A DNA stretch of 64,000 nucleotides, from sequence record OM953433; one strand, written 5' to 3'. Positions 1 through 35,884 of the stretch are shown in pieces. A program made the position numbers and the translations under genes. Source of the DNA: Shigella phage Henu11. The stretch's first letter is position 1. Each line of letters begins with the position of its first letter. The notes below the pieces were generated by a model. The model saw only the letters and a list, made by a program, of their open reading frames with translations, was not told the origin of the DNA and ran no database searches.

Positions 1-54
1 CACTGCAAAAAACACATCATTAAGATTAAACGTGCAAAGATTATTTGGGAATAA
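1..54 (+). CDS. partial CDS (3' end only); paralog of the C-terminus of the 84..533 product
   Basis: In-frame translation HCKKHIIKIKRAKIIWE* closely matches the end of ORF 84..533 (AYCKSHIIKIKRKKIIWE*). Confidence 0.4.
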   Translation, partial: HCKKHIIKIKRAKIIWE

Positions 55-83
55 TTTTATACACTATCTAAAGAGACAAAGTT

Positions 84-533
84 ATGATTAGCTCATTTTA
101 TGTAACGCTTGTTGAGATACTACACGAAAAATTCGGGACTGATAAGGAATTTGATTCCAATGAAGCGGTGAAAGCTCTAAGAAGCGGTTGTGATTATCTT
201 AAGAAAATGCCGATAGCAAACTCAAGGTATTATTTATCAGCGTTGCGTAAAGTTGGGGTACTCGTGACTGTCAAGCATGGTAGTAAAAATGGTGGAGTTC
301 TTTATATCAACCAGTTAAGCAAACCATTTATGGAAAATGAGCCACGACTAGCAAGACTGGTGACTGGTGTACAATACCAAATAAAAACTACAGAAATTCC
401 AGAAGTACAAGAGCAAAACCCAAATGTTAAGTACTTTGTTGGTGAAATCATGTTTGATACAATTAATGATGCTGTTGCATACTGTAAAAGCCATATCATT
501 AAAATCAAAAGAAAGAAGATTATTTGGGAATAA
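84..533 (+). CDS. hypothetical protein
   Basis: ORF track 149 aa; co-oriented with downstream operon. Confidence 0.55.
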   Translation: MISSFYVTLVEILHEKFGTDKEFDSNEAVKALRSGCDYLKKMPIANSRYYLSALRKVGVLVTVKHGSKNGGVLYINQLSKPFMENEPRLARLVTGVQYQIKTTEIPEVQEQNPNVKYFVGEIMFDTINDAVAYCKSHIIKIKRKKIIWE

Positions 534-570
534 TAAGTAACAAACGTAACTTTTGACTGAGAGAAATATT

Positions 571-1452
571 ATGAAAACTACTATTCGAGTTCTACTTAAT
601 TCAAATTCCAAAGGTTCTCATCAAGAGACCTTCAACATTATCCAGTTCCCTTCTGGGGAGATTGGTGGTAACTTCTCAGAAGACTTAGTAGACTTTGCTG
701 AACATGCTGCTGGTAAGATTGAAAACGTAGTCTTCACAGTACAAGGTTATGACAAAGACACACTCTTTGCATTAGCTATGGCTAAAGAAGCAATTGACCG
801 TTTGATTCCTCAGAAAGCAACTCTGAAAACTGTTGTCTTTGGATTCTTACCAAATGCTCGCTATGACCGTCACATGTTTAAAGGTGATGCAGCAGCACTT
901 AAAGTCTTTGCAAATCTTGTAAATGCTATGGAGTTCGATGCAGTATGTGCTCTGGATACTCACAGTAATGTTGCAGAGAATTTGTTTAAGAGCTTCTACA
1001 ACCTCCCTCAAAAAGAGGCAGCAGTCCACTTTGCAAGTGACCCACGCATTGATTACTTAGTGGCTCCAGATGCAGGTGCAGCTAAGAAGACTGAAGAGGC
1101 TGCTAAAGAGGTTGATAAACCTTATATTACAATGGCTAAGGTACGAAACCTGAAAACTGGTGAAATCACTGGTATGCGAATCCTTGATGATGTAGACTTG
1201 ACAGGTAAGACTGTCATGATTCTGGATGATATCTGTGACGGTGGTCGAACCTTTATCGAGGCTGCAAAGTATCTTCGTGAAGCTGGAGCAGAACGTGTGG
1301 AACTGTATGTCACTCATGGGATTTTCTCTAAAGGTGTTGAAAATCTCCTTGACAATGGTATCGACCATATCTACACTACAAACTCACTAGGGGATGAAAA
1401 AGACCGTGGTCTTTCCCACTTCTCACAAGTGACCGTAGCAAATATTGAATAA
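571..1452 (+). CDS. ribose-phosphate pyrophosphokinase (PRPP synthetase) family protein; possibly Adps-like
   Basis: ORF track (start moved to ATG 571 behind a GAGAG SD); PRPP-binding signature ILDDICDGGRTF and LVAPDAGAAKK. Confidence 0.8.
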   Translation: MKTTIRVLLNSNSKGSHQETFNIIQFPSGEIGGNFSEDLVDFAEHAAGKIENVVFTVQGYDKDTLFALAMAKEAIDRLIPQKATLKTVVFGFLPNARYDRHMFKGDAAALKVFANLVNAMEFDAVCALDTHSNVAENLFKSFYNLPQKEAAVHFASDPRIDYLVAPDAGAAKKTEEAAKEVDKPYITMAKVRNLKTGEITGMRILDDVDLTGKTVMILDDICDGGRTFIEAAKYLREAGAERVELYVTHGIFSKGVENLLDNGIDHIYTTNSLGDEKDRGLSHFSQVTVANIE

Positions 1453-1496
1453 CAACTTTAGGGGCTGAAAAGCCCCACTTTGAGAGAGATAAAAAG

Positions 1497-3323
1497 ATGA
1501 CTAAATCACTTTATGCAGTACCAGCAGCACTTAATGCAGATGCCTACAAATCTGGCCATTTCTACCAGTATCCAGATGCTACACAGTATCTTATGCTGAA
1601 CTTAACACCTCGTGGAGATAAATGGTTTAACTCTCCGTTAGAGATTGATGGTGTTGTAGCCTTTGGTATTCAGCGTTTTGTAAAAGACTATCTGGTAGAC
1701 CACTGGAATGCAACGTTCTTTGAACGTGATAAGAAAGAAGCCATTGACGAAATCTTGGAAATCATGAATGGTGTCCTTGGTGCAGATGCTATTGGTCGTC
1801 AACATTGGGAAGAACTTCATGACTTGGGTTACCTACCTGTTGAAGTCTACTCTGTAGAGGAAGGTACAATTGTCCCTATGCGTGTCCCGATGATTGTCTT
1901 TAAAAACACTGTAGAGGGATTCCATTGGGTAGCTGGTTACCTTGAAGATGCTTTCTCTGCTGAAATCTGGAAGGCTTGTACGATTGCAACTATTGCACTG
2001 CATTACAAACGTATCTGTAAACAATGGGCTGACAAGACCTGTGACAATGACTTCCATTTACCTTGGCAGTGTCATGATTTTGCAATGCGTGGTATGTCTG
2101 GCTTCACAGATGATGCTTTTAATGCTGTAGGTCACTTGACCAGCTTTAAAGGTACTGACAGCTTCCCTGCTGTGTATACTGCTAAACGTGCTTATGGTCA
2201 GTTTATGACAATCAGTGATATTGGCAACTCTGTACCAGCAACTGAACACTCTGTGATGTGTGCAAACATTTCATGGAATATGAAAGACCTGACAGAAGAG
2301 GATATTCACTCACAGTACATTATGCAGTCTGAAGGATTACTAGATGCCAAACGTTGGCGTGGTGAGGTAGAAACTTTCCATCGCCTTCTGACAGAAGTTT
2401 ACCCAACTGGTATTGCAAGTGCCGTATCAGATACTTACAACTTCTGGCGTACTGTTACACAGATTCTGCCAGAGCTACGTAATGTAATTCTGAATCGTGA
2501 TGGTAAGTTGGTAATTCGTCCAGACTCTGGAGACCCTGTTCACATTGTTACAGGTTACAAAGCCGTTGAATGGGAAACTGCTAAGTCAATGTTCTACAAG
2601 CACATGAAAGGTCTTGCACCAGATAATACCCATCTGCATGACACAATCTTGAATTGTGAAATGTCTGATATTGGTTTTGGGTTCTCTGCTTGGTTAATCT
2701 CTGAAGGTTATGAGATGGTTGTTGAAAATGAAGATTTTGATTATATTGACACAATCAACCTGATTACCGCTCAGAAAACTGGACAGTTTACTGTGAAGCG
2801 TATGTTAACAGCAGAAATTGATGGAGCTATACACACGCTGTATAACATCTTTGGTGGCACTGTTAACTCCAAAGGGTACAAAGTACTGGATGAGCACATT
2901 GGGCTAATCTACGGTGATTCTATCACTCTGGAAAGGGCTAATGAGATTCTGTCACGTCTTGCTGATAAAGGTTTTGCAAGTTCTAACGTAGTGTTTGGTG
3001 TAGGCTCATACACCTATCAGTACCTGACTCGTGACACCTTTGCATTTGCTGTTAAAGCAACTCTTGCACAGATGGATGGTCAAGAAATTATGCTGGCTAA
3101 AGACCCTAAAACTGACAGCGGTCTTAAGAAGTCTGCTTTTGGTGGAGTTGTCCCTATGTGGGATGGTGACAAGCTGGTAGCTGTAGATGGTTTTGGCTTT
3201 GCAGAGTTTGAAGGTGCAATTGACAACTGTCATAGTGCTTTGAAACTGGTATTTAGTAACTCGCAACCTTATGGTTACGTTAACCTGCGTGATGTTCGAA
3301 ATACTATTGACAAGCAACTTTAA
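1497..3323 (+). CDS. nicotinamide phosphoribosyltransferase (Nampt/NadV) family protein, 608 aa
   Basis: ORF track; N-terminal ADAYKSGH motif typical of Nampt family; immediately downstream of the Prs-like gene. Confidence 0.7.
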   Translation: MTKSLYAVPAALNADAYKSGHFYQYPDATQYLMLNLTPRGDKWFNSPLEIDGVVAFGIQRFVKDYLVDHWNATFFERDKKEAIDEILEIMNGVLGADAIGRQHWEELHDLGYLPVEVYSVEEGTIVPMRVPMIVFKNTVEGFHWVAGYLEDAFSAEIWKACTIATIALHYKRICKQWADKTCDNDFHLPWQCHDFAMRGMSGFTDDAFNAVGHLTSFKGTDSFPAVYTAKRAYGQFMTISDIGNSVPATEHSVMCANISWNMKDLTEEDIHSQYIMQSEGLLDAKRWRGEVETFHRLLTEVYPTGIASAVSDTYNFWRTVTQILPELRNVILNRDGKLVIRPDSGDPVHIVTGYKAVEWETAKSMFYKHMKGLAPDNTHLHDTILNCEMSDIGFGFSAWLISEGYEMVVENEDFDYIDTINLITAQKTGQFTVKRMLTAEIDGAIHTLYNIFGGTVNSKGYKVLDEHIGLIYGDSITLERANEILSRLADKGFASSNVVFGVGSYTYQYLTRDTFAFAVKATLAQMDGQEIMLAKDPKTDSGLKKSAFGGVVPMWDGDKLVAVDGFGFAEFEGAIDNCHSALKLVFSNSQPYGYVNLRDVRNTIDKQL

Positions 3324-3337
3324 AACAGTATGATAAG

Positions 3338-3359
3338 AGGCTCCTACGGGAGCCTTTTT
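3338..3359 (+). terminator. rho-independent terminator
   Basis: aggctcc-tacg-ggagcct hairpin followed by TTTT. Confidence 0.6.
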
Positions 3360-3376
3360 AATTTGTGGAGATTACT

Positions 3377-3712
3377 ATGAAAATTAAACAGATGAATGTT
3401 AATTTAATCATTGAAGAACGTTGGGAAAACATTAAGCGTCCTGAAGATGGTCATAAGTTTATCAATGAACTGTTTCAAGCAGCACAATCAGAGTTAGCTT
3501 CTGAGATTTATACAACGGTTACTTTGAAGGTCTATATCAAAGGTCTTCCACAGAACCATCAAGAAGCTCTTGATTTGTTTCAAGAAGAATTTTACAATCC
3601 AAACAAAAAGATACTTGAGAATAGTTTTGCAGTATCTTCGAGTATTGTTCATGACAGAAGTTTTGTCCTATTCAGAACTATAGGAGATAAGGTATGCAAG
3701 GTTATTGGTTAG
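3377..3712 (+). CDS. hypothetical protein
   Basis: ORF track; start moved to ATG 3377 with GGAG 8 nt upstream. Confidence 0.5.
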   Translation: MKIKQMNVNLIIEERWENIKRPEDGHKFINELFQAAQSELASEIYTTVTLKVYIKGLPQNHQEALDLFQEEFYNPNKKILENSFAVSSSIVHDRSFVLFRTIGDKVCKVIG

Positions 3713-3873
3713 AAATTGTTCTTTCACTCGGTTGTATAGTTGCTATTGCAATGTTACTATGCAAGTACTTCTCAGAGACTGAACCTTGTGATGAGTGTGA
3801 AGGTTCTGGGGTAGTTGGTATAGGTCATTGTTGCCCTTACTGTAATGGAACTGGAAAGAAATTTAAAAAGTAA
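3694..3873 (+). CDS. small membrane-anchored zinc-ribbon protein (59 aa)
   Basis: Unlisted ORF below the track size cut-off; GGAG SD at 3683; hydrophobic N-terminus then CDECEG...HCCPYCNG. Confidence 0.35.
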   Translation: MQGYWLEIVLSLGCIVAIAMLLCKYFSETEPCDECEGSGVVGIGHCCPYCNGTGKKFKK

Positions 3874-3874
3874 C

Positions 3875-3904
3875 TTGACAGTGGCATCTATAAAATTATA
3901 TAGT
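3875..3904 (+). promoter_or_regulatory. sigma70-like promoter TTGACA-N18-TATAGT
   Basis: ttgaca at 3875-3880, tatagt at 3899-3904, upstream of rIIA. Confidence 0.55.
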
Positions 3905-3935
3905 TTGCCACATCGACAACTAAGGAGATATTCTT

Positions 3936-6308
3936 ATGCGCATGGTAAATGACCACGCAACGGTAATTAAAAGCTCAAGTACACTGGAAACCTCTCAGGC
4001 TCAGATTAAGATGACACCTGAAATGTTCAGTCTTCTAAGCTCAGGTGTTTACACATATAAAGAACGTGCTGTAATTCGTGAATTGTCATGTAACGCAGTA
4101 GATGCTCACATTGATTCTGGTAACGTTGATAAACCTTTCTTGGTTCACTTACCAACTCGTTTCGAGCCATTCTTTGAAGTTCGTGACTTTGGTACAGGAC
4201 TGACTCATGATAAAGTTATGAAACTTTACATGACCTATGGAGAATCTACAAAGAACGATTCAAACGACTACATTGGTGCTATGGGTATCGGTTCAAAGTC
4301 CCCATTTGCAATTGCTCAGTCATTCACTGTATCAAGCTATGTTGATGGTGTAGTTAACAAATACTCAGTTTACCTTGAGAATGGTATCCCTCAAGTAACT
4401 AAGTTGACTACTAACCCAACTACAGAGCCAAATGGTTTAGCTGTTCGAGTAGCGGTATCCGATAACCGTATCAACAAGTTTCATGAAGAAGCGAGCAATG
4501 TATACTCGTACTTTAAAGTTAAGCCAGAGTGTAATGTTGAGTACTATGACATTCTTGAAGCAATGACTTCCATTTCTCGTGAAGATGGTGTCTATGATGC
4601 AATGAAGTACAAAGAGAACTGGCGCTCAAATAGTAACAGCGTCCATTTCAATGTAATCATGGGTAACATTGCTTATCCGGTTGAAATGGGTGAGTTGCTT
4701 GGCTCAGAGTTTACAAACATTCTGCCTCAGTTCTTCCGTAGTGCTGTAGACCTTGTTAACATCTACATGCCAATTGGTTCAGTGGCTATTGCTGCATCTC
4801 GTGAAGCATTGCAGATGAATGAGACCACTAAGACCAAGATTGTTGAAGCTGTGAAGAAAATCACTAAGACAATCGTAGAAGATGTGGTAAAAGAGATTGC
4901 TAACAAGCCAACTCTGATTGATGCTGCTCAAGCCTATGATACCATGAGGAAGGAGGCTCGTGAAATCTTTATTCACGTCCAAGATTCTCTGGAATGGCAA
5001 GGCCAGAACTTGAAAAAGCTTGAACAAAAACTGTTAGGTATCCGTCGTGGTCAGTTAACTGAAGCAGATGGTTCTCCGTCATTCTTGAAAGATGATGCAG
5101 GTAACTTGAGGCTTGACAAAGATGGTAATCCAGTTCCTAATATTGGTAATCTGTATGAACCTGTAGCATACTACAAGTACAGCAGTCTGGAGAACCGTAT
5201 TCGAGCAACTTCAGCAACTTATTCACAAGATGCAGCAATGTTTAGTATCTTTGGTGCAATGAGTAAAGACAAGTTGAGCAACTATTTGTTCCTTATTAAT
5301 GACCGTCGAAACAAGAACGGGTCTGAGAAGACAACTGGTAAAAACCAGATTATCCGTGGAGCTTGCCGTGACCGTGAACAGGAAGACTCTAACTTCCGTC
5401 GCTACAATGGTATTGCTTTCTTGTTCAGCAGTCAGCAGCAATTTGATGAGTTTGTAGCTTTGCATATGCTTGACAAGAGTCTGTTAAGTGTGCATACAAT
5501 GTCATCTAAAGAGCACCACTATGAAAAACGTACTATTGTACGTGGTGTTGTAAAACTGTATAAAGCATTTATATGTCCAAATACTTACATGATTCGTTAT
5601 ACAGAGGTTAAAGAGAACTTTGATGAGATTGAAGAACCACAACTGTATATCAAAGCACAGAGTGATGAAGTGATTGGTGGAATCTTCTCATGTTCACCAG
5701 AACGTGCTGCAACGTTGATGACAGAGTTAACTGGACAGTCAGTTTATGTCTTCCGTAAAGCCAACTGGAAAAAGATTCCTGAAGACTGGACAGAAGTCAA
5801 TGAACAAGTGATGAAAGATTTCATTGATGCTACACATTGGATTGAGTATCATCGTTTCTTGACTCACCAATATATGACTAATAATCATGATATTACTGAT
5901 TGTAATGTGATTTCTCGAAACTTTATGTTTGCTGATAAGCGTAAGTCCAGAGGCCACATTTACAGTAAAGACTTTAAGAAGACTATTTTCTTAGAGGGGA
6001 ATGAAGAGGCTATAGAAGCAATGTTTGGACGCTTGGCATACACTGCTGCACCAGTTGCTTACAAAGATATTACCAGCACTCTTGATACCATTCGCAGGAA
6101 TATGAGAGGCTCTTGTAAGCCAAGAAAGGTTCTGGATAACGCTAAGAAGCGTCTTGAAAGTAAGTTCAAAGATTACTTTGAGAAACGCCGTAAAGAAAAC
6201 TTCTTGCTTTCTAATCTGGATTGGAATAAAGTATCACCCGTCGAAGTTGGTAAGTTTTTAGGTTTTGACACTAAGAGCATTCCAGAAGATACTGTATGCT
6301 GGGATTAA
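3936..6308 (+). CDS. rIIA: rIIA-like protein (N-terminal GHKL/HATPase-like domain)
   Basis: VIRELSCNAVDAH, VRDFGTGL, NDYIGAMGIGSKSPF motifs as in T4 rIIA; AAGGAG SD. Confidence 0.8.
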   Translation: MRMVNDHATVIKSSSTLETSQAQIKMTPEMFSLLSSGVYTYKERAVIRELSCNAVDAHIDSGNVDKPFLVHLPTRFEPFFEVRDFGTGLTHDKVMKLYMTYGESTKNDSNDYIGAMGIGSKSPFAIAQSFTVSSYVDGVVNKYSVYLENGIPQVTKLTTNPTTEPNGLAVRVAVSDNRINKFHEEASNVYSYFKVKPECNVEYYDILEAMTSISREDGVYDAMKYKENWRSNSNSVHFNVIMGNIAYPVEMGELLGSEFTNILPQFFRSAVDLVNIYMPIGSVAIAASREALQMNETTKTKIVEAVKKITKTIVEDVVKEIANKPTLIDAAQAYDTMRKEAREIFIHVQDSLEWQGQNLKKLEQKLLGIRRGQLTEADGSPSFLKDDAGNLRLDKDGNPVPNIGNLYEPVAYYKYSSLENRIRATSATYSQDAAMFSIFGAMSKDKLSNYLFLINDRRNKNGSEKTTGKNQIIRGACRDREQEDSNFRRYNGIAFLFSSQQQFDEFVALHMLDKSLLSVHTMSSKEHHYEKRTIVRGVVKLYKAFICPNTYMIRYTEVKENFDEIEEPQLYIKAQSDEVIGGIFSCSPERAATLMTELTGQSVYVFRKANWKKIPEDWTEVNEQVMKDFIDATHWIEYHRFLTHQYMTNNHDITDCNVISRNFMFADKRKSRGHIYSKDFKKTIFLEGNEEAIEAMFGRLAYTAAPVAYKDITSTLDTIRRNMRGSCKPRKVLDNAKKRLESKFKDYFEKRRKENFLLSNLDWNKVSPVEVGKFLGFDTKSIPEDTVCWD

Positions 6309-10685: not shown

Positions 10686-10878
10686 TTTCTGCACTAAGTG
10701 TTCTGTTGAGATGTTTGGAAAAGATACAGGAGACTTAAAAGGTCTCTTTACAAAGGCAGAATTTAAAGCTGGTTCAGCAATGCCAGTAATCTGTGAAGGT
10801 TGCGGTGCTTTATGGGTAGACCATGAAGGTAACCGAGTTAAACCATCTGAAGATAACGAACGTTGGGAGCATTACTAA
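10678..10878 (+). CDS. small Cys-rich (zinc-ribbon-like) protein
   Basis: ORF track; CTKCS...CEGCG. Confidence 0.4.
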   Translation: MADFCTKCSVEMFGKDTGDLKGLFTKAEFKAGSAMPVICEGCGALWVDHEGNRVKPSEDNERWEHY

Positions 10879-10879
10879 T

Positions 10880-11674
10880 ATGGGTATCGTAAAAATTATT
10901 AAAGGTGATATCTTTAAAGATTTTGATGGTAAGAAGTTTGATATCATTGGTCACGGTTGTAACTGCATGAACTTGATGCCAGCAGGTATCGCAGCAACAA
11001 TTGCTAAACGCTACCCAAAAGCTTATGAAACTGACGCTGAAGTTTATGCTACAGTAGGTGGTGAAAATCATAACCCTAAGCATCTAATGCTTGGTAACAT
11101 CTCTGTAGCACGTTTTAAGCAGGGTCGAATTGCTAACCTTTACACTCAGGTTATCACTGGCAAAGATGCACGATACAACGCCTTAGAAGCAGCTTTACAG
11201 CGTCTTAACAACTACTGTAAAGTTAATCAACTTAAGAAAGTTGGGCTTCCGATGATTGGTGCAGGGATTGGTGGTCTTGATAGCATGGCTGTACTGTCCA
11301 TTATCAACCAGACTATGAAGGATGTTGACGTTTATATGTATGTCTATGAAGATAAGATGTACAGTCAGTTGACTAGTCCTGTTACTGGTTGGGAGAACTT
11401 CAGTGAGCCTCAATACTTTGATGGTGTTGCTGTGGTAGGCAAGGATAAAGTTACCCTCAAGGTGAAGCGTAATGGCAAGGTACACACCAGTTACCCTCCG
11501 GTTGAGAAGTACAATCGAAGTAACGCTCAAGTTACCCACCCGTTACAAGGCCACCACCACAGAGCGGTAACGTTTGGCGATGATGCAAGTGTATATATCA
11601 ATGCGACTACAGAAGAGTTTGCAGAAGATTATATCACACATGAAAACGTAAACTATGTTGAAGCACGTAACTAA
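10880..11674 (+). CDS. macro-domain-like protein with C-terminal extension
   Basis: ORF track with start moved to ATG 10880; GDIF...DIIGHGCNCMNLMPAGIAATIAKRYP and VGLPMIGAGIGGLD resemble macro-domain signature blocks. Confidence 0.5.
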   Translation: MGIVKIIKGDIFKDFDGKKFDIIGHGCNCMNLMPAGIAATIAKRYPKAYETDAEVYATVGGENHNPKHLMLGNISVARFKQGRIANLYTQVITGKDARYNALEAALQRLNNYCKVNQLKKVGLPMIGAGIGGLDSMAVLSIINQTMKDVDVYMYVYEDKMYSQLTSPVTGWENFSEPQYFDGVAVVGKDKVTLKVKRNGKVHTSYPPVEKYNRSNAQVTHPLQGHHHRAVTFGDDASVYINATTEEFAEDYITHENVNYVEARN

Positions 11675-34765: not shown

Positions 34766-34839
34766 TGTGGCCTTATCATAAATGGATAATGACCCATGCT
34801 GTGAACATGGTCTATACGGGTTCGATTCCCGTAGGTCAC
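34766..34839 (+). tRNA. tRNA-His (GTG)
   Basis: acceptor gtggcct/aggtcac; anticodon arm ccatg-ctgtgaa-catgg; T-arm acggg-ttcgatt-cccgt. Confidence 0.7.
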
Positions 34840-34847
34840 CCCAATTT

Positions 34848-34923
34848 AATAGCTCAATTAGCTTATATGGTTAAAGCGCGTGTCTGAAAAACATGAGAAC
34901 AGGGTTCAAATCCCGATGGGCTA
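34848..34923 (+). tRNA. tRNA-Phe (GAA)
   Basis: acceptor tagctca/tgggcta; anticodon arm cgtgt-ctgaaaa-acatg; T-loop ttcaaat. Confidence 0.6.
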
Positions 34924-34941
34924 CCAACTTTATAGGTGCAT

Positions 34942-35677
34942 AATGAAAGAGATGACAGAACAAAGTAAAGAGATTTTTAATCTCCTTAAAACTGGTAATG
35001 GGTTCTCTAACCCTCTTATTACTGGTGCAGCAGTTCTTGGTGGTACTGTAGCTGCTTCTCAATCATTAGTGAACTCAATTAGTTCTGTAACAGACCCTGC
35101 AACACAACAGATTTTAGTTGCTGCTGGACTGACAACAGCCTTATTAGGAAGCTTCACAACAAGCCTTGGAAGTACAACTTCAACGACAAGTACACTCACT
35201 GAGTATGGACAAAAGTCTGTAGATGAGTTTTCACAACGTATGCAAGTAGCTAAAGGTTACTCTAACGTTATGGGAGCAGCAGGTGAACAGGTTGGATGTA
35301 CACCGTTTAGCGGTATCATGGGCGTAGCTACCGAGTACGGTAATAAAGCGATGGATTTGATTAATACCTCCATAGACGCTGTAAATAGCGTCCTAAGCGA
35401 TTTGCAAGATGCAATCGACCAAGGACTAGATACAATCTCTGAACTCGCTACACAGGCCGTTACAGCGATTAATGAGGGTATTACAAAGATTACTGCATAT
35501 GCTAATGAAGTAACTCAGATGATTGCAGATGAAGCAGCACTGATTGCAGAATACCTGAAAACAAATATTAATGGTTTCCTTGCGAATGTTCTACCAAGCT
35601 GGTTTGACGATTCATGTAAAACTGGTGTGATTGATACTATCGCAACTCCAGAGATGAAAGAAGCTCTGAACAAATAA
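34942..35677 (+). CDS. hypothetical Ala/Thr/Ser-rich low-complexity protein
   Basis: ORF track 34880..35677 trimmed to ATG 34942 to clear tRNA-Phe. Confidence 0.5.
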
Positions 35678-35678
35678 T

Positions 35679-35768
35679 GGAAGATTAACCCTAAAAGGTA
35701 AGGGAGCAGTTTGCTAAACTGCCAGTAACCGAGAAATCGGCGTACCAGTTCAAGTCTGGTATCTTCCT
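35679..35768 (+). tRNA. tRNA-Ser (GCT), type II
   Basis: 90 nt; acceptor ggaagat/atcttcc; anticodon arm gcagt-ttgctaa-actgc; T-arm accag-ttcaagt-ctggt. Confidence 0.7.
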
Positions 35769-35778
35769 CCAATTTAAT

Positions 35779-35851
35779 GTATCGGTGACAGAAATGGATA
35801 TGTGCCTGTCTGCAAAACAGGTTTATGAGGGTTCAAATCCCTTCCGATACT
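35779..35851 (+). tRNA. tRNA-Cys (GCA)
   Basis: acceptor gtatcgg/ccgatac; anticodon arm cctgt-ctgcaaa-acagg; T-arm gaggg-ttcaaat-ccctt. Confidence 0.75.
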
Positions 35852-35884
35852 CCAATTTATTAATATCTCTCTCAAAGTTATTAT

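Follow-up and report, generated by a model that had tools for sequence, protein, structure and literature searches.

The two adjacent genes at positions 571-1452 and 1497-3323 of Shigella phage Henu11 (sequence record OM953433; positions refer to the window, the whole stretch of 64,000 nucleotides analysed here) very probably constitute a NARP1 module, in which an ADP-ribose pyrophosphate synthetase (Adps) is paired with a nicotinamide ADP-ribose transferase (Namat). This assignment is based on the gene structure, on the similarity and conserved order shared with the genes of phage Bas63, and on published specificity motifs; the enzyme activities and the anti-defence effect of the pair are expected by analogy. 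Where a host defence (SIR2-HerA/Nezha, type I Thoeris, DSR1/2, SEFIR or similar) cleaves NAD+ to ADP-ribose and nicotinamide, Adps would transfer pyrophosphate from ATP to the free ribose of ADP-ribose, yielding ADPR-PP, and Namat would then exchange the pyrophosphate of ADPR-PP for nicotinamide, giving NAD+ directly with neither an NMN intermediate nor host salvage enzymes. NARP1 has already been described, and the pair establishes no new biology.

The source of the window is a phage of the Mooglevirus type, within the Ounavirinae. Over this region the sequence has 100% identity to Shigella phage Henu12, and the window shares 93.8-95.6% DNA identity with Mordin, Michonne and Sf13. Both genes lie on the plus strand, the Prs-like adps (293 aa; homology to Bas63 gp79 and PHROG 619) preceding the Nampt-like namat (608 aa; homology to Bas63 gp80 and SpβL1 Namat), which is the next gene on the same strand after a spacer of 44 nt (1453-1496). 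The original prediction of a Prs-family gene upstream of a Nampt-family gene is borne out by matches to Pfam, TIGR01251, NF006629 and PHROGs 619 and 448. We place the adps start at the ATG at 571 rather than at the TTG at 553 given in a program-made ORF list, because the homologues open with MKT. Bas63 has the same succession of genes (nrdG, small ORFs, adps, namat, small ORFs, rIIA, rIIB), except that it lacks a tandem pair of 149-aa genes without a known function, which lies directly 5' of adps here and in Mordin.

Since neither a promoter nor a terminator was found in 533-571, adps and namat are most likely co-transcribed with the upstream genes, with transcription ending at an intrinsic terminator on the plus strand at 3335-3358 (a 10-bp stem followed by a T-run). 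This was the sole terminator-like site in a scan of 1-4200, a terminator is annotated at the equivalent position in phage Mordin, and the single match in an Rfam scan of the same interval was a chance-level Histone3 hit lying on it. The promoter scan returned nine sites against 10.8 expected, a count not above chance, so we claim no promoter, the TTGACA-17-TACACT site inside adps included.

NARP1 was discovered in Bas63 by deletion and metabolomics, and gp79 and gp80 of that phage are the prototype. Bas63 without genes 79-80 is sensitive to SIR2-HerA and its NAD+ is lowered, while ADPR-PP is seen only when both the genes and the defence system are present; in an independent study, deletion of either gene brought plating down by 10^4-10^6. 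Purification of the Bas63 protein failed; the enzymological data were obtained with the SpβL1 and ICP1 homologues, at 30-37% identity. The SpβL1 homologues convert ADPR and ATP to ADPR-PP, and ADPR-PP and nicotinamide to NAD+, with Namat preferring ADPR-PP over PRPP. Near-identical genes from Mordin, Michonne and Sf13 already appear in the published tables of Adps and of "Adps-associated" Namat proteins.

The product of 571-1452 aligns with Bas63 gp79 over its full length with no gaps at 81% identity, compared to 34% for Athena Adps, 30% for ICP1 Adps and 24% for Escherichia coli Prs. It matches the Pfam families Pribosyltran and Pribosyl_synth (PF00156, PF14572), both above cut-off, as well as PHROG 619 "ribose-phosphate pyrophosphokinase" (E 3.8e-99), and passes the subfamily model TIGR01251 (131 against a cut-off of 113), but it falls far below all Prs equivalog cut-offs, scoring 54-108 bits against NCBIfam Prs equivalog and subfamily models that require 296-536 bits (for example 100 against 297 for NF002320 and 108 against 296 for NF002095). 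The C-terminal Prs segment, corresponding to the α11-α12 regulatory and filament module, is absent: the alignment stops approximately 20 residues before the end of E. coli Prs and leaves a gap over the IPLSDEIKSLPNV region. Taken with the published table, these identities and profile scores place the protein in the phage Adps clade and not with cellular Prs, as judged from sequence. The acceptor residues, the catalytic β-hairpin lysine (K190) and the remodelled PP loop DDICDG...F are kept, ICP1 Adps residues F18, R87, H121, D161 and K185 corresponding to F26, R97, H131, D167 and K190, and D212, D213, C215, D216 and F221 to D219, D220, C222, D223 and F228; the assignment of Phe18 to Phe26 rests on a five-sequence alignment. 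The exception is the adenine-contacting Phe92 of ICP1 Adps, which aligns with Met102, next to Phe103.

Namat is 75% identical to Bas63 gp80 and matches Pfam NAPRTase and NAMPT_N (PF04095, PF18127), NF006629 and PHROG 448 "nicotinamide phosphoribosyl transferase" (E 1.6e-199). Its top PDB match by both sequence and structure is SpβL1 Namat (9W5X/9W5W; E 2.5e-125), and the AlphaFold2 model (pLDDT 92.8) reaches a TM score of 0.95, on the target, to the 9W5X crystal structure. The Nampt-like fold and the phosphorylatable histidine (H251) are present, and every mapped residue of the catalytic core is conserved (D15, Y17, F195, R198, D221, A248, H251, R341, D343, G473, D474, G503, S504, R512 and D513). 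Specificity is indicated by two elements. The selectivity-clamp loop (SCL; aa 40-50, 1614-1646, plus strand) reads GDKWFNSPLEI, the same pattern as SDKWFNSPLAI in Bas63. According to the published rule, adenine is stacked by an arginine at the third position of the loop or by the residue that follows a lysine or tyrosine; in Bas63 the third residue is lysine, so that the fourth stacks on the adenine, and G40-D41-K42-W43 fits this predicted pattern. The selectivity-clamp helix (SCH; aa 503-513, 3003-3035, plus strand) carries GSYTYQYLTRD, the published Namat signature, where the counterparts are GGGLLQQLDRD in KVP40-type Nampt (ValKK3), GGALLQKVDRD in Xcc Nampt and GAQTYQRNTRD in HdNadV. The GGxLLQ motif of Nampt-type (NARP2) enzymes is thus absent, and an adenine clamp formed by GSYTYQYLTRD and Lys42-Trp43 would take its place.

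These features bear on two other readings of the pair. The Pfam, NCBIfam and PHROG names all denote Prs and Nampt/NAPRTase, and public records annotate the genes in this way, which would suit a classical salvage route where a true PRPP synthetase and a true Nampt produce NMN that host enzymes of the NadR/PncC type convert to NAD+. The original prediction gave this route equal standing with NARP1, but the two are not equally likely: the first protein fails the Prs equivalog cut-offs and lacks the Prs C-terminal segment, and the second has the Namat clamp in place of GGxLLQ. Furthermore, SpβL1 Adps gives no Prs product, and the Bas63 effect is independent of pncC and nadR, the host genes for NMN-to-NAD+ conversion, and held in a ΔpncC ΔnadR host. 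Some classical activity is possible, because Namat homologues retain the capacity to make NMN from PRPP in vitro, but as an account of the pair we consider classical salvage very improbable. The presence of nucleotide-metabolism genes in the neighbourhood (nrd genes lie upstream of the pair in relatives), together with the overproduction of NAD+ by NARP2 phages, could alternatively suggest that the pair raises NAD+ for phage metabolism irrespective of any defence system in the host. However, NARP2 requires a Nampt-clade enzyme with an Nmnat partner, whereas the motif here is of the Namat type and the near-identical Mordin protein is labelled "Adps-associated" in the published table, and Bas63 gave no excess NAD+ when the host carried no defence system. 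No NMN adenylyltransferase gene was detected among the genes at 84-6308. Such general boosting of NAD+ seems to us hardly credible, and the NARP1 reading of the original prediction, with 81% and 75% identity to gp79 and gp80, the signatures and the published tables in its favour, is the one we retain.

The spacer between the two genes was initially described as consisting only of a 16-nt perfect hairpin. The hairpin is indeed there, at 1461-1476 on the plus strand (GGGGCT-GAAA-AGCCCC, a perfect 6-bp stem with a 4-nt loop), but it occupies only part of the 44 nt, being preceded by 8 nt and followed by 20 nt that include a purine-rich ribosome-binding stretch, GAGAGAGA (1482-1489, plus strand, 7 nt 5' of the namat ATG), as read from the sequence. 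GAGAGAGA is invariant across four aligned phages and is kept in SUSP1 after an HNH gene. With low confidence, the probable role of the hairpin is that of a weak attenuator, or of an element for stabilising or processing the mRNA. Whether it is a functional regulatory element, fixing the ratio of Adps to Namat by partial termination or by processing, or is instead neutral spacer, divides the evidence. Across Mooglevirus and Felixounavirus the stem is constant, whereas the loop (GAAA, TGAA, TCAA) and the flanking sequence change, as seen in Mordin, Bas63 and NJ12, and the stability of the 71-nt hairpin region (-13.9 kcal/mol, z = -3.27) is far above that of shuffled sequences, none of 200 folding as well. 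A stem that never varies offers no compensatory changes, however, leaving structure-specific selection unproven; its 3' side carries only ACTTTG, a T-tract shorter than terminator criteria require; no Rfam family matched the hairpin in the scan of 1-4200; and SUSP1 and VpaE1 have an HNH endonuclease gene in the spacer instead of the hairpin, while keeping both adps and namat intact. We therefore put a regulatory role at somewhat short of an even chance.

The length of Namat had suggested an extra domain, and this expectation is supported by the model. Relative to homologues of 495 aa, the additional length resides mainly in two insertions of ~28 and ~73 aa, approximately 100 residues together, and sequence topology indicates that both leave loops following core β-strands that bear catalytic residues. 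Insertion 1 (~aa 258-289, 2268-2363, plus strand) directly follows the catalytic-His strand ATEH251SVM, is unaligned to SpβL1 Namat and is predicted to be helical, the segment being 51 aa long here, 37 aa in Bas63 and 23 aa in the 495-aa forms. Insertion 2 (~aa 356-442, 2562-2822, plus strand) follows the RPDSGDP strand and is predicted to form a compact α/β module. Neither insertion alone matched a Pfam family, and a Foldseek search of BFVD with insertion 2 gave nothing at E <= 0.001, so that no recognisable structural relative was obtained. Since the Bas63 Namat is also a long form with both insertions, the inserted α/β module is no mark of a different system. The insertions could gate the entrance to the active site, dock Adps, or add regulation that is missing from the short SpβL1 enzyme.

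An operon-borne Adpp or RyR-domain accessory gene was considered and rejected, the immediate neighbours being without such domains; the flanking ORFs at 84-533, 3377-3712 and 3694-3873 gave no Macro match. A Poa1p/Adpp-like Macro-domain gene is found at 10823-11674, 7.5 kb downstream of the pair; its product is 30% identical to Athena Adpp, itself nearly identical to Gary Adpp, and has a C-terminal extension of ~110 aa. NARP1-AP is recognised by a Macro-domain Adpp within two genes of Adps/Namat, and the gene here lies outside that distance. A specific link of the Macro gene to NARP1 is unsupported, the family occurring in ~2750 phage records including T4-like phages. The Macro protein could supply ADP-ribose from ADPR-1''-phosphate and, if so, the phage would possess a dispersed "NARP1-AP" that could overcome aRES-type defences, an arrangement that the published survey would have missed because it was limited to two genes around NARP1. 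That the undescribed, independently folding α/β module (~75-90 aa) and the helical insertion of Ounavirinae-type "long" Namats serve in gating, docking or regulation, and that the Macro gene completes a dispersed NARP1-AP, is a joint proposition we consider rather unlikely.

The main outcome is a correction of annotation: public records including that of Henu12 give the two genes the names "ribose-phosphate pyrophosphokinase" and "nicotinamide phosphoribosyltransferase", for which Adps and Namat should be substituted. The module predicts resistance of this group of Shigella, Citrobacter and E. coli phages to SIR2-HerA, type I Thoeris, DSR and similar NAD+-depleting systems, which is relevant to the choice of therapeutic phages. 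The insertion module of Namat and the distal Macro/Adpp-like gene provide modest, testable leads.

Among the known systems, NARP1-AP of Vibrio phage Gary (Adps-Adpp-Namat) has the Adps and Namat core in common with the pair, but there Adpp is part of the operon, whereas the Macro gene here lies outside it. NARP2 (the Nampt NadV and the Nmnat NatV of KVP40) shares a homologous phosphoribosyltransferase fold and the aim of restoring NAD+, but proceeds from PRPP via NMN and has no Adps partner, and its Nampt is ~28% identical and carries GGGLLQQLDRD (ValKK3) rather than the aromatic clamp. For Adps of Vibrio phage ICP1, an apo crystal structure and cryo-EM structures with substrate and product are available; the protein resembles the one here in its acceptor residues, catalytic lysine, DDICDG PP loop and loss of the Prs C-terminal module, and differs in its ~30% identity, in having Phe92 where Met102 is found, and in its N-terminal region, which is longer here. 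Adps and Namat of SpβL1 have been characterised biochemically, and crystal structures of Namat (9W5W/9W5X) have been determined. Fold, catalytic core and clamp of that Namat are alike (GSFTYQYNTRD against GSYTYQYLTRD), but it is ~37% identical, has 491 aa without either insertion, and stacks through Arg40 of its SCL where Lys42-Trp43 is present here. NARP1 of Bas63 (Escherichia phage JohannRWettstein) belongs to the same subfamily, the Ounavirinae, with the same gene order and neighbours; its Namat is shorter by 15 aa in insertion 1, while its Adps equally has 293 aa and the SCL (DKWFNSPL) and SCH motifs match.

The adjacent Prs-like and Nampt-like genes of the original prediction were confirmed as two long open reading frames on the same strand. 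The first, adps (571-1452, +), encodes 293 aa and matches the Pfam phosphoribosyltransferase and Prs-associated domains, the TIGR01251 Prs subfamily model and PHROG 619 (E 3.8e-99); all homologues begin (MKT...) at the ATG at 571, as opposed to the TTG at 553 given in a mechanical ORF list. The second, namat (1497-3323, +), encodes 608 aa matching Pfam NAPRTase and NAMPT_N, NF006629 and PHROG 448 (E 1.6e-199). Just 3' of namat lies an intrinsic terminator (3335-3358), which is the sole site within 1-4200 passing intrinsic-terminator criteria and is annotated at the equivalent position in phage Mordin; two small ORFs and then rIIA follow. Positions 400-3500 share 100% identity with Shigella phage Henu12; identity is 93.8-96.4% for Mooglevirus phages (Ounavirinae) of Citrobacter and Shigella, among them Mordin, Michonne and Sf13, and ~76% for Felixounavirus phages.

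A 16-nt hairpin had been described as all that separates the two genes. The hairpin itself is indeed perfect, with a 6-bp stem and a GAAA loop (1461-1476), but it fills only part of a spacer of 44 nt (1453-1496), where it is followed by a purine-rich ribosome-binding stretch. The region folds at -13.9 kcal/mol (z = -3.27 against shuffles), the T-tract 3' of the hairpin is short, and a search of Rfam gave no family match for it. Across Mordin, Bas63 and NJ12 the loop varies and the stem is invariant, and covariation therefore speaks neither for nor against a conserved structure. The hairpin is missing from the Ounavirinae phages SUSP1 and VpaE1, where the corresponding spacer (2391-2882 of loci L005 and L006, respectively) harbors a free-standing HNH homing-endonuclease gene but retains the namat ribosome-binding stretch. 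A role for the hairpin as a weak attenuator or RNA-stability element is plausible but unproven.

Several other genes in the window were recorded. Directly 5' of adps are tandem paralogous 149-aa genes (PHROG 29478) at 1-54 and 84-533 (+), the former being the tail of the upstream copy (ending ...HIIKIKRAKIIWE versus ...HIIKIKRKKIIWE, each before a stop codon); Mordin has the two of them annotated, as Mordin_7 and Mordin_8, and Bas63 has no counterpart between gp78 and gp79. The ORF at 3694-3873 (+) encodes 59 aa with a hydrophobic N-terminus and two CxxC pairs (CDECEGSG...CPYCNGTG; PHROG 3931), bearing a weak, sub-threshold likeness to the DnaJ zinc-finger repeat, and its Bas63 homologue is annotated as a "putative membrane protein". 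Further downstream, 26 tRNA genes covering most amino acids cluster at 30455-35854 (+), adjoined on the upstream side by a 471-aa ORF with DUF2828 and DUF7788 (28874-30289, +). Such a cluster is typical of FelixO1-like phages.

The acceptor residues of Adps are known from the phage ICP1 structures, as are its catalytic β-hairpin Lys and its remodelled PP loop. The equivalents in the Henu11 protein are F26, R97, H131, D167, K190, D219, D220, C222, D223 and F228, with DDICDGGRTF as the PP loop; the sole exception among the mapped residues is ICP1 Phe92, which corresponds to Met102, with Phe103 adjacent. The C-terminal Prs regulatory segment is absent, and the protein falls far under each Prs equivalog cut-off. 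For Namat, an adenine "selectivity clamp" of two elements has been described, one being the variable β1-β2 loop, where a third-position Arg or the residue following Lys/Tyr stacks on adenine. Here the loop reads G40-D41-K42-W43 and the helix motif is GSYTYQYLTRD (aa 503-513), the same clamp pattern as in Bas63 Namat and unlike the helix motifs of KVP40-type Nampt (ValKK3, GGGLLQQLDRD), Xanthomonas Nampt (GGALLQKVDRD) and Haemophilus NadV (GAQTYQRNTRD). All catalytic-core residues mapped from the SpβL1 Namat are conserved, and an AlphaFold2 model (pLDDT 92.8) has a Namat crystal structure as its best match (TM 0.95 on target).

The extra domain anticipated from the length of the Nampt-like protein takes the form of two insertions relative to the SpβL1 Namat and 495-aa bacterial homologues: ~28 aa directly after the catalytic-His strand (ATEH251SVM...) and ~73 aa directly after the RPDSGDP strand. 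Because both are also present in Bas63 Namat (593 aa) and recur in many further phage Namats 560-610 aa long, they are compatible with function in NARP1, the published Adps-Namat pair that rebuilds NAD+. The insertion sites are loops after core β-strands that bear catalytic residues, and the topology of the sequence makes it probable that both are on the barrel's catalytic face. Among the homologues, chromosomal proteins of Klebsiella, Kosakonia, Phytobacter and Erwinia (495-496 aa, ~45-50% identity, motif GS[YF]TYQYNTRD) look like bacterial Namat and not Nampt. In Vibrio phage ICP1_2012_A (locus L004, 2458-2637) the annotated Namat CDS (439 aa) is without a ~58-aa N-terminal part comprising the Asp/Tyr nicotinamide-binding residues and the clamp loop; the frame upstream encodes ...LMKDTYKAFHKF...TNRHGKY, but in this record a stop codon breaks it. 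The gene may truly be split, or the record may contain a sequencing or annotation error.

Outside the adps-namat coordinates, a Macro-domain ORF (PF01661) lies at 10823-11674 (+). Yeast Poa1p, an ADP-ribose 1''-phosphate phosphatase, gives the best sequence match in the PDB, and the product of the ORF has an additional C-terminal ~110 aa without a domain match. Vibrio phage Athena carries a Macro gene between adps and namat whose product is 30% identical to it (E 4e-16) and almost identical to Adpp, the characterised phosphatase of phage Gary's Adps-Adpp-Namat system; Bas63 gp95 ("putative phosphatase") is a Macro-domain protein too. The Ounavirinae are absent from the Adpp survey because it covered just two genes on each side of NARP1. 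Given that the Macro family is widespread (~2750 phage records, T4-like phages included), a functional link of the distal gene to NARP1, as an Adpp, is only a lead.

NARP1 was discovered in Bas63 (JohannRWettstein, Felixounavirus, BASEL) as "operon 79-80", annotated Prs and Nampt. Deletion of this operon renders the phage sensitive to SIR2-HerA with deeper NAD+ loss; ADPR-pyrophosphate was seen only where the operon and the defence system occurred together, and host pncC and nadR were not required for protection. Single deletion of either gene lowered plating by 10^4-10^6 in an independent knockout screen. The classical Prs/Nampt salvage route through PRPP, which the original prediction had held equally possible, finds some footing in the PRPP activity that remains in Namat homologues in vitro, but the motif tests, the cut-off tests and the Bas63 genetics are all contrary, and we disfavour it; the same observations disfavour a NARP2-type pair (Nampt and Nmnat, via NMN). 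Under the NARP1 reading, Adps would by homology move the β,γ-pyrophosphate of ATP onto the 1'' hydroxyl of ADP-ribose, and nicotinamide would then displace pyrophosphate on Namat to give NAD+ directly, steps that would recycle precisely both products of SIR2- and TIR-type NADases. This predicted chemistry draws its enzymology from the SpβL1 and ICP1 homologues (30-37% identical) and its phenotype from Bas63; from the window pair itself come the gene structure, the motifs, and a close resemblance in which gene order is conserved too.

The gene order of Bas63 (MZ501086; nrdG, small ORFs, 79, 80, small ORFs, rIIA, rIIB) is that of the window neighbourhood, Adps is 81% identical to gp79 without gaps over 293/293 positions, and Namat is 75% identical to gp80, which together with the specificity motifs supports identification as Adps and Namat, the main reading of the original prediction. 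Since the paper that discovered NARP1 lists the Mordin, Michonne and Sf13 proteins in its supplementary tables as Adps and "Adps-associated" Namat, the window pair is, judged by sequence, a member of the set that defined NARP1, more than a NARP1-like pair, and represents an already known system, not a new one.
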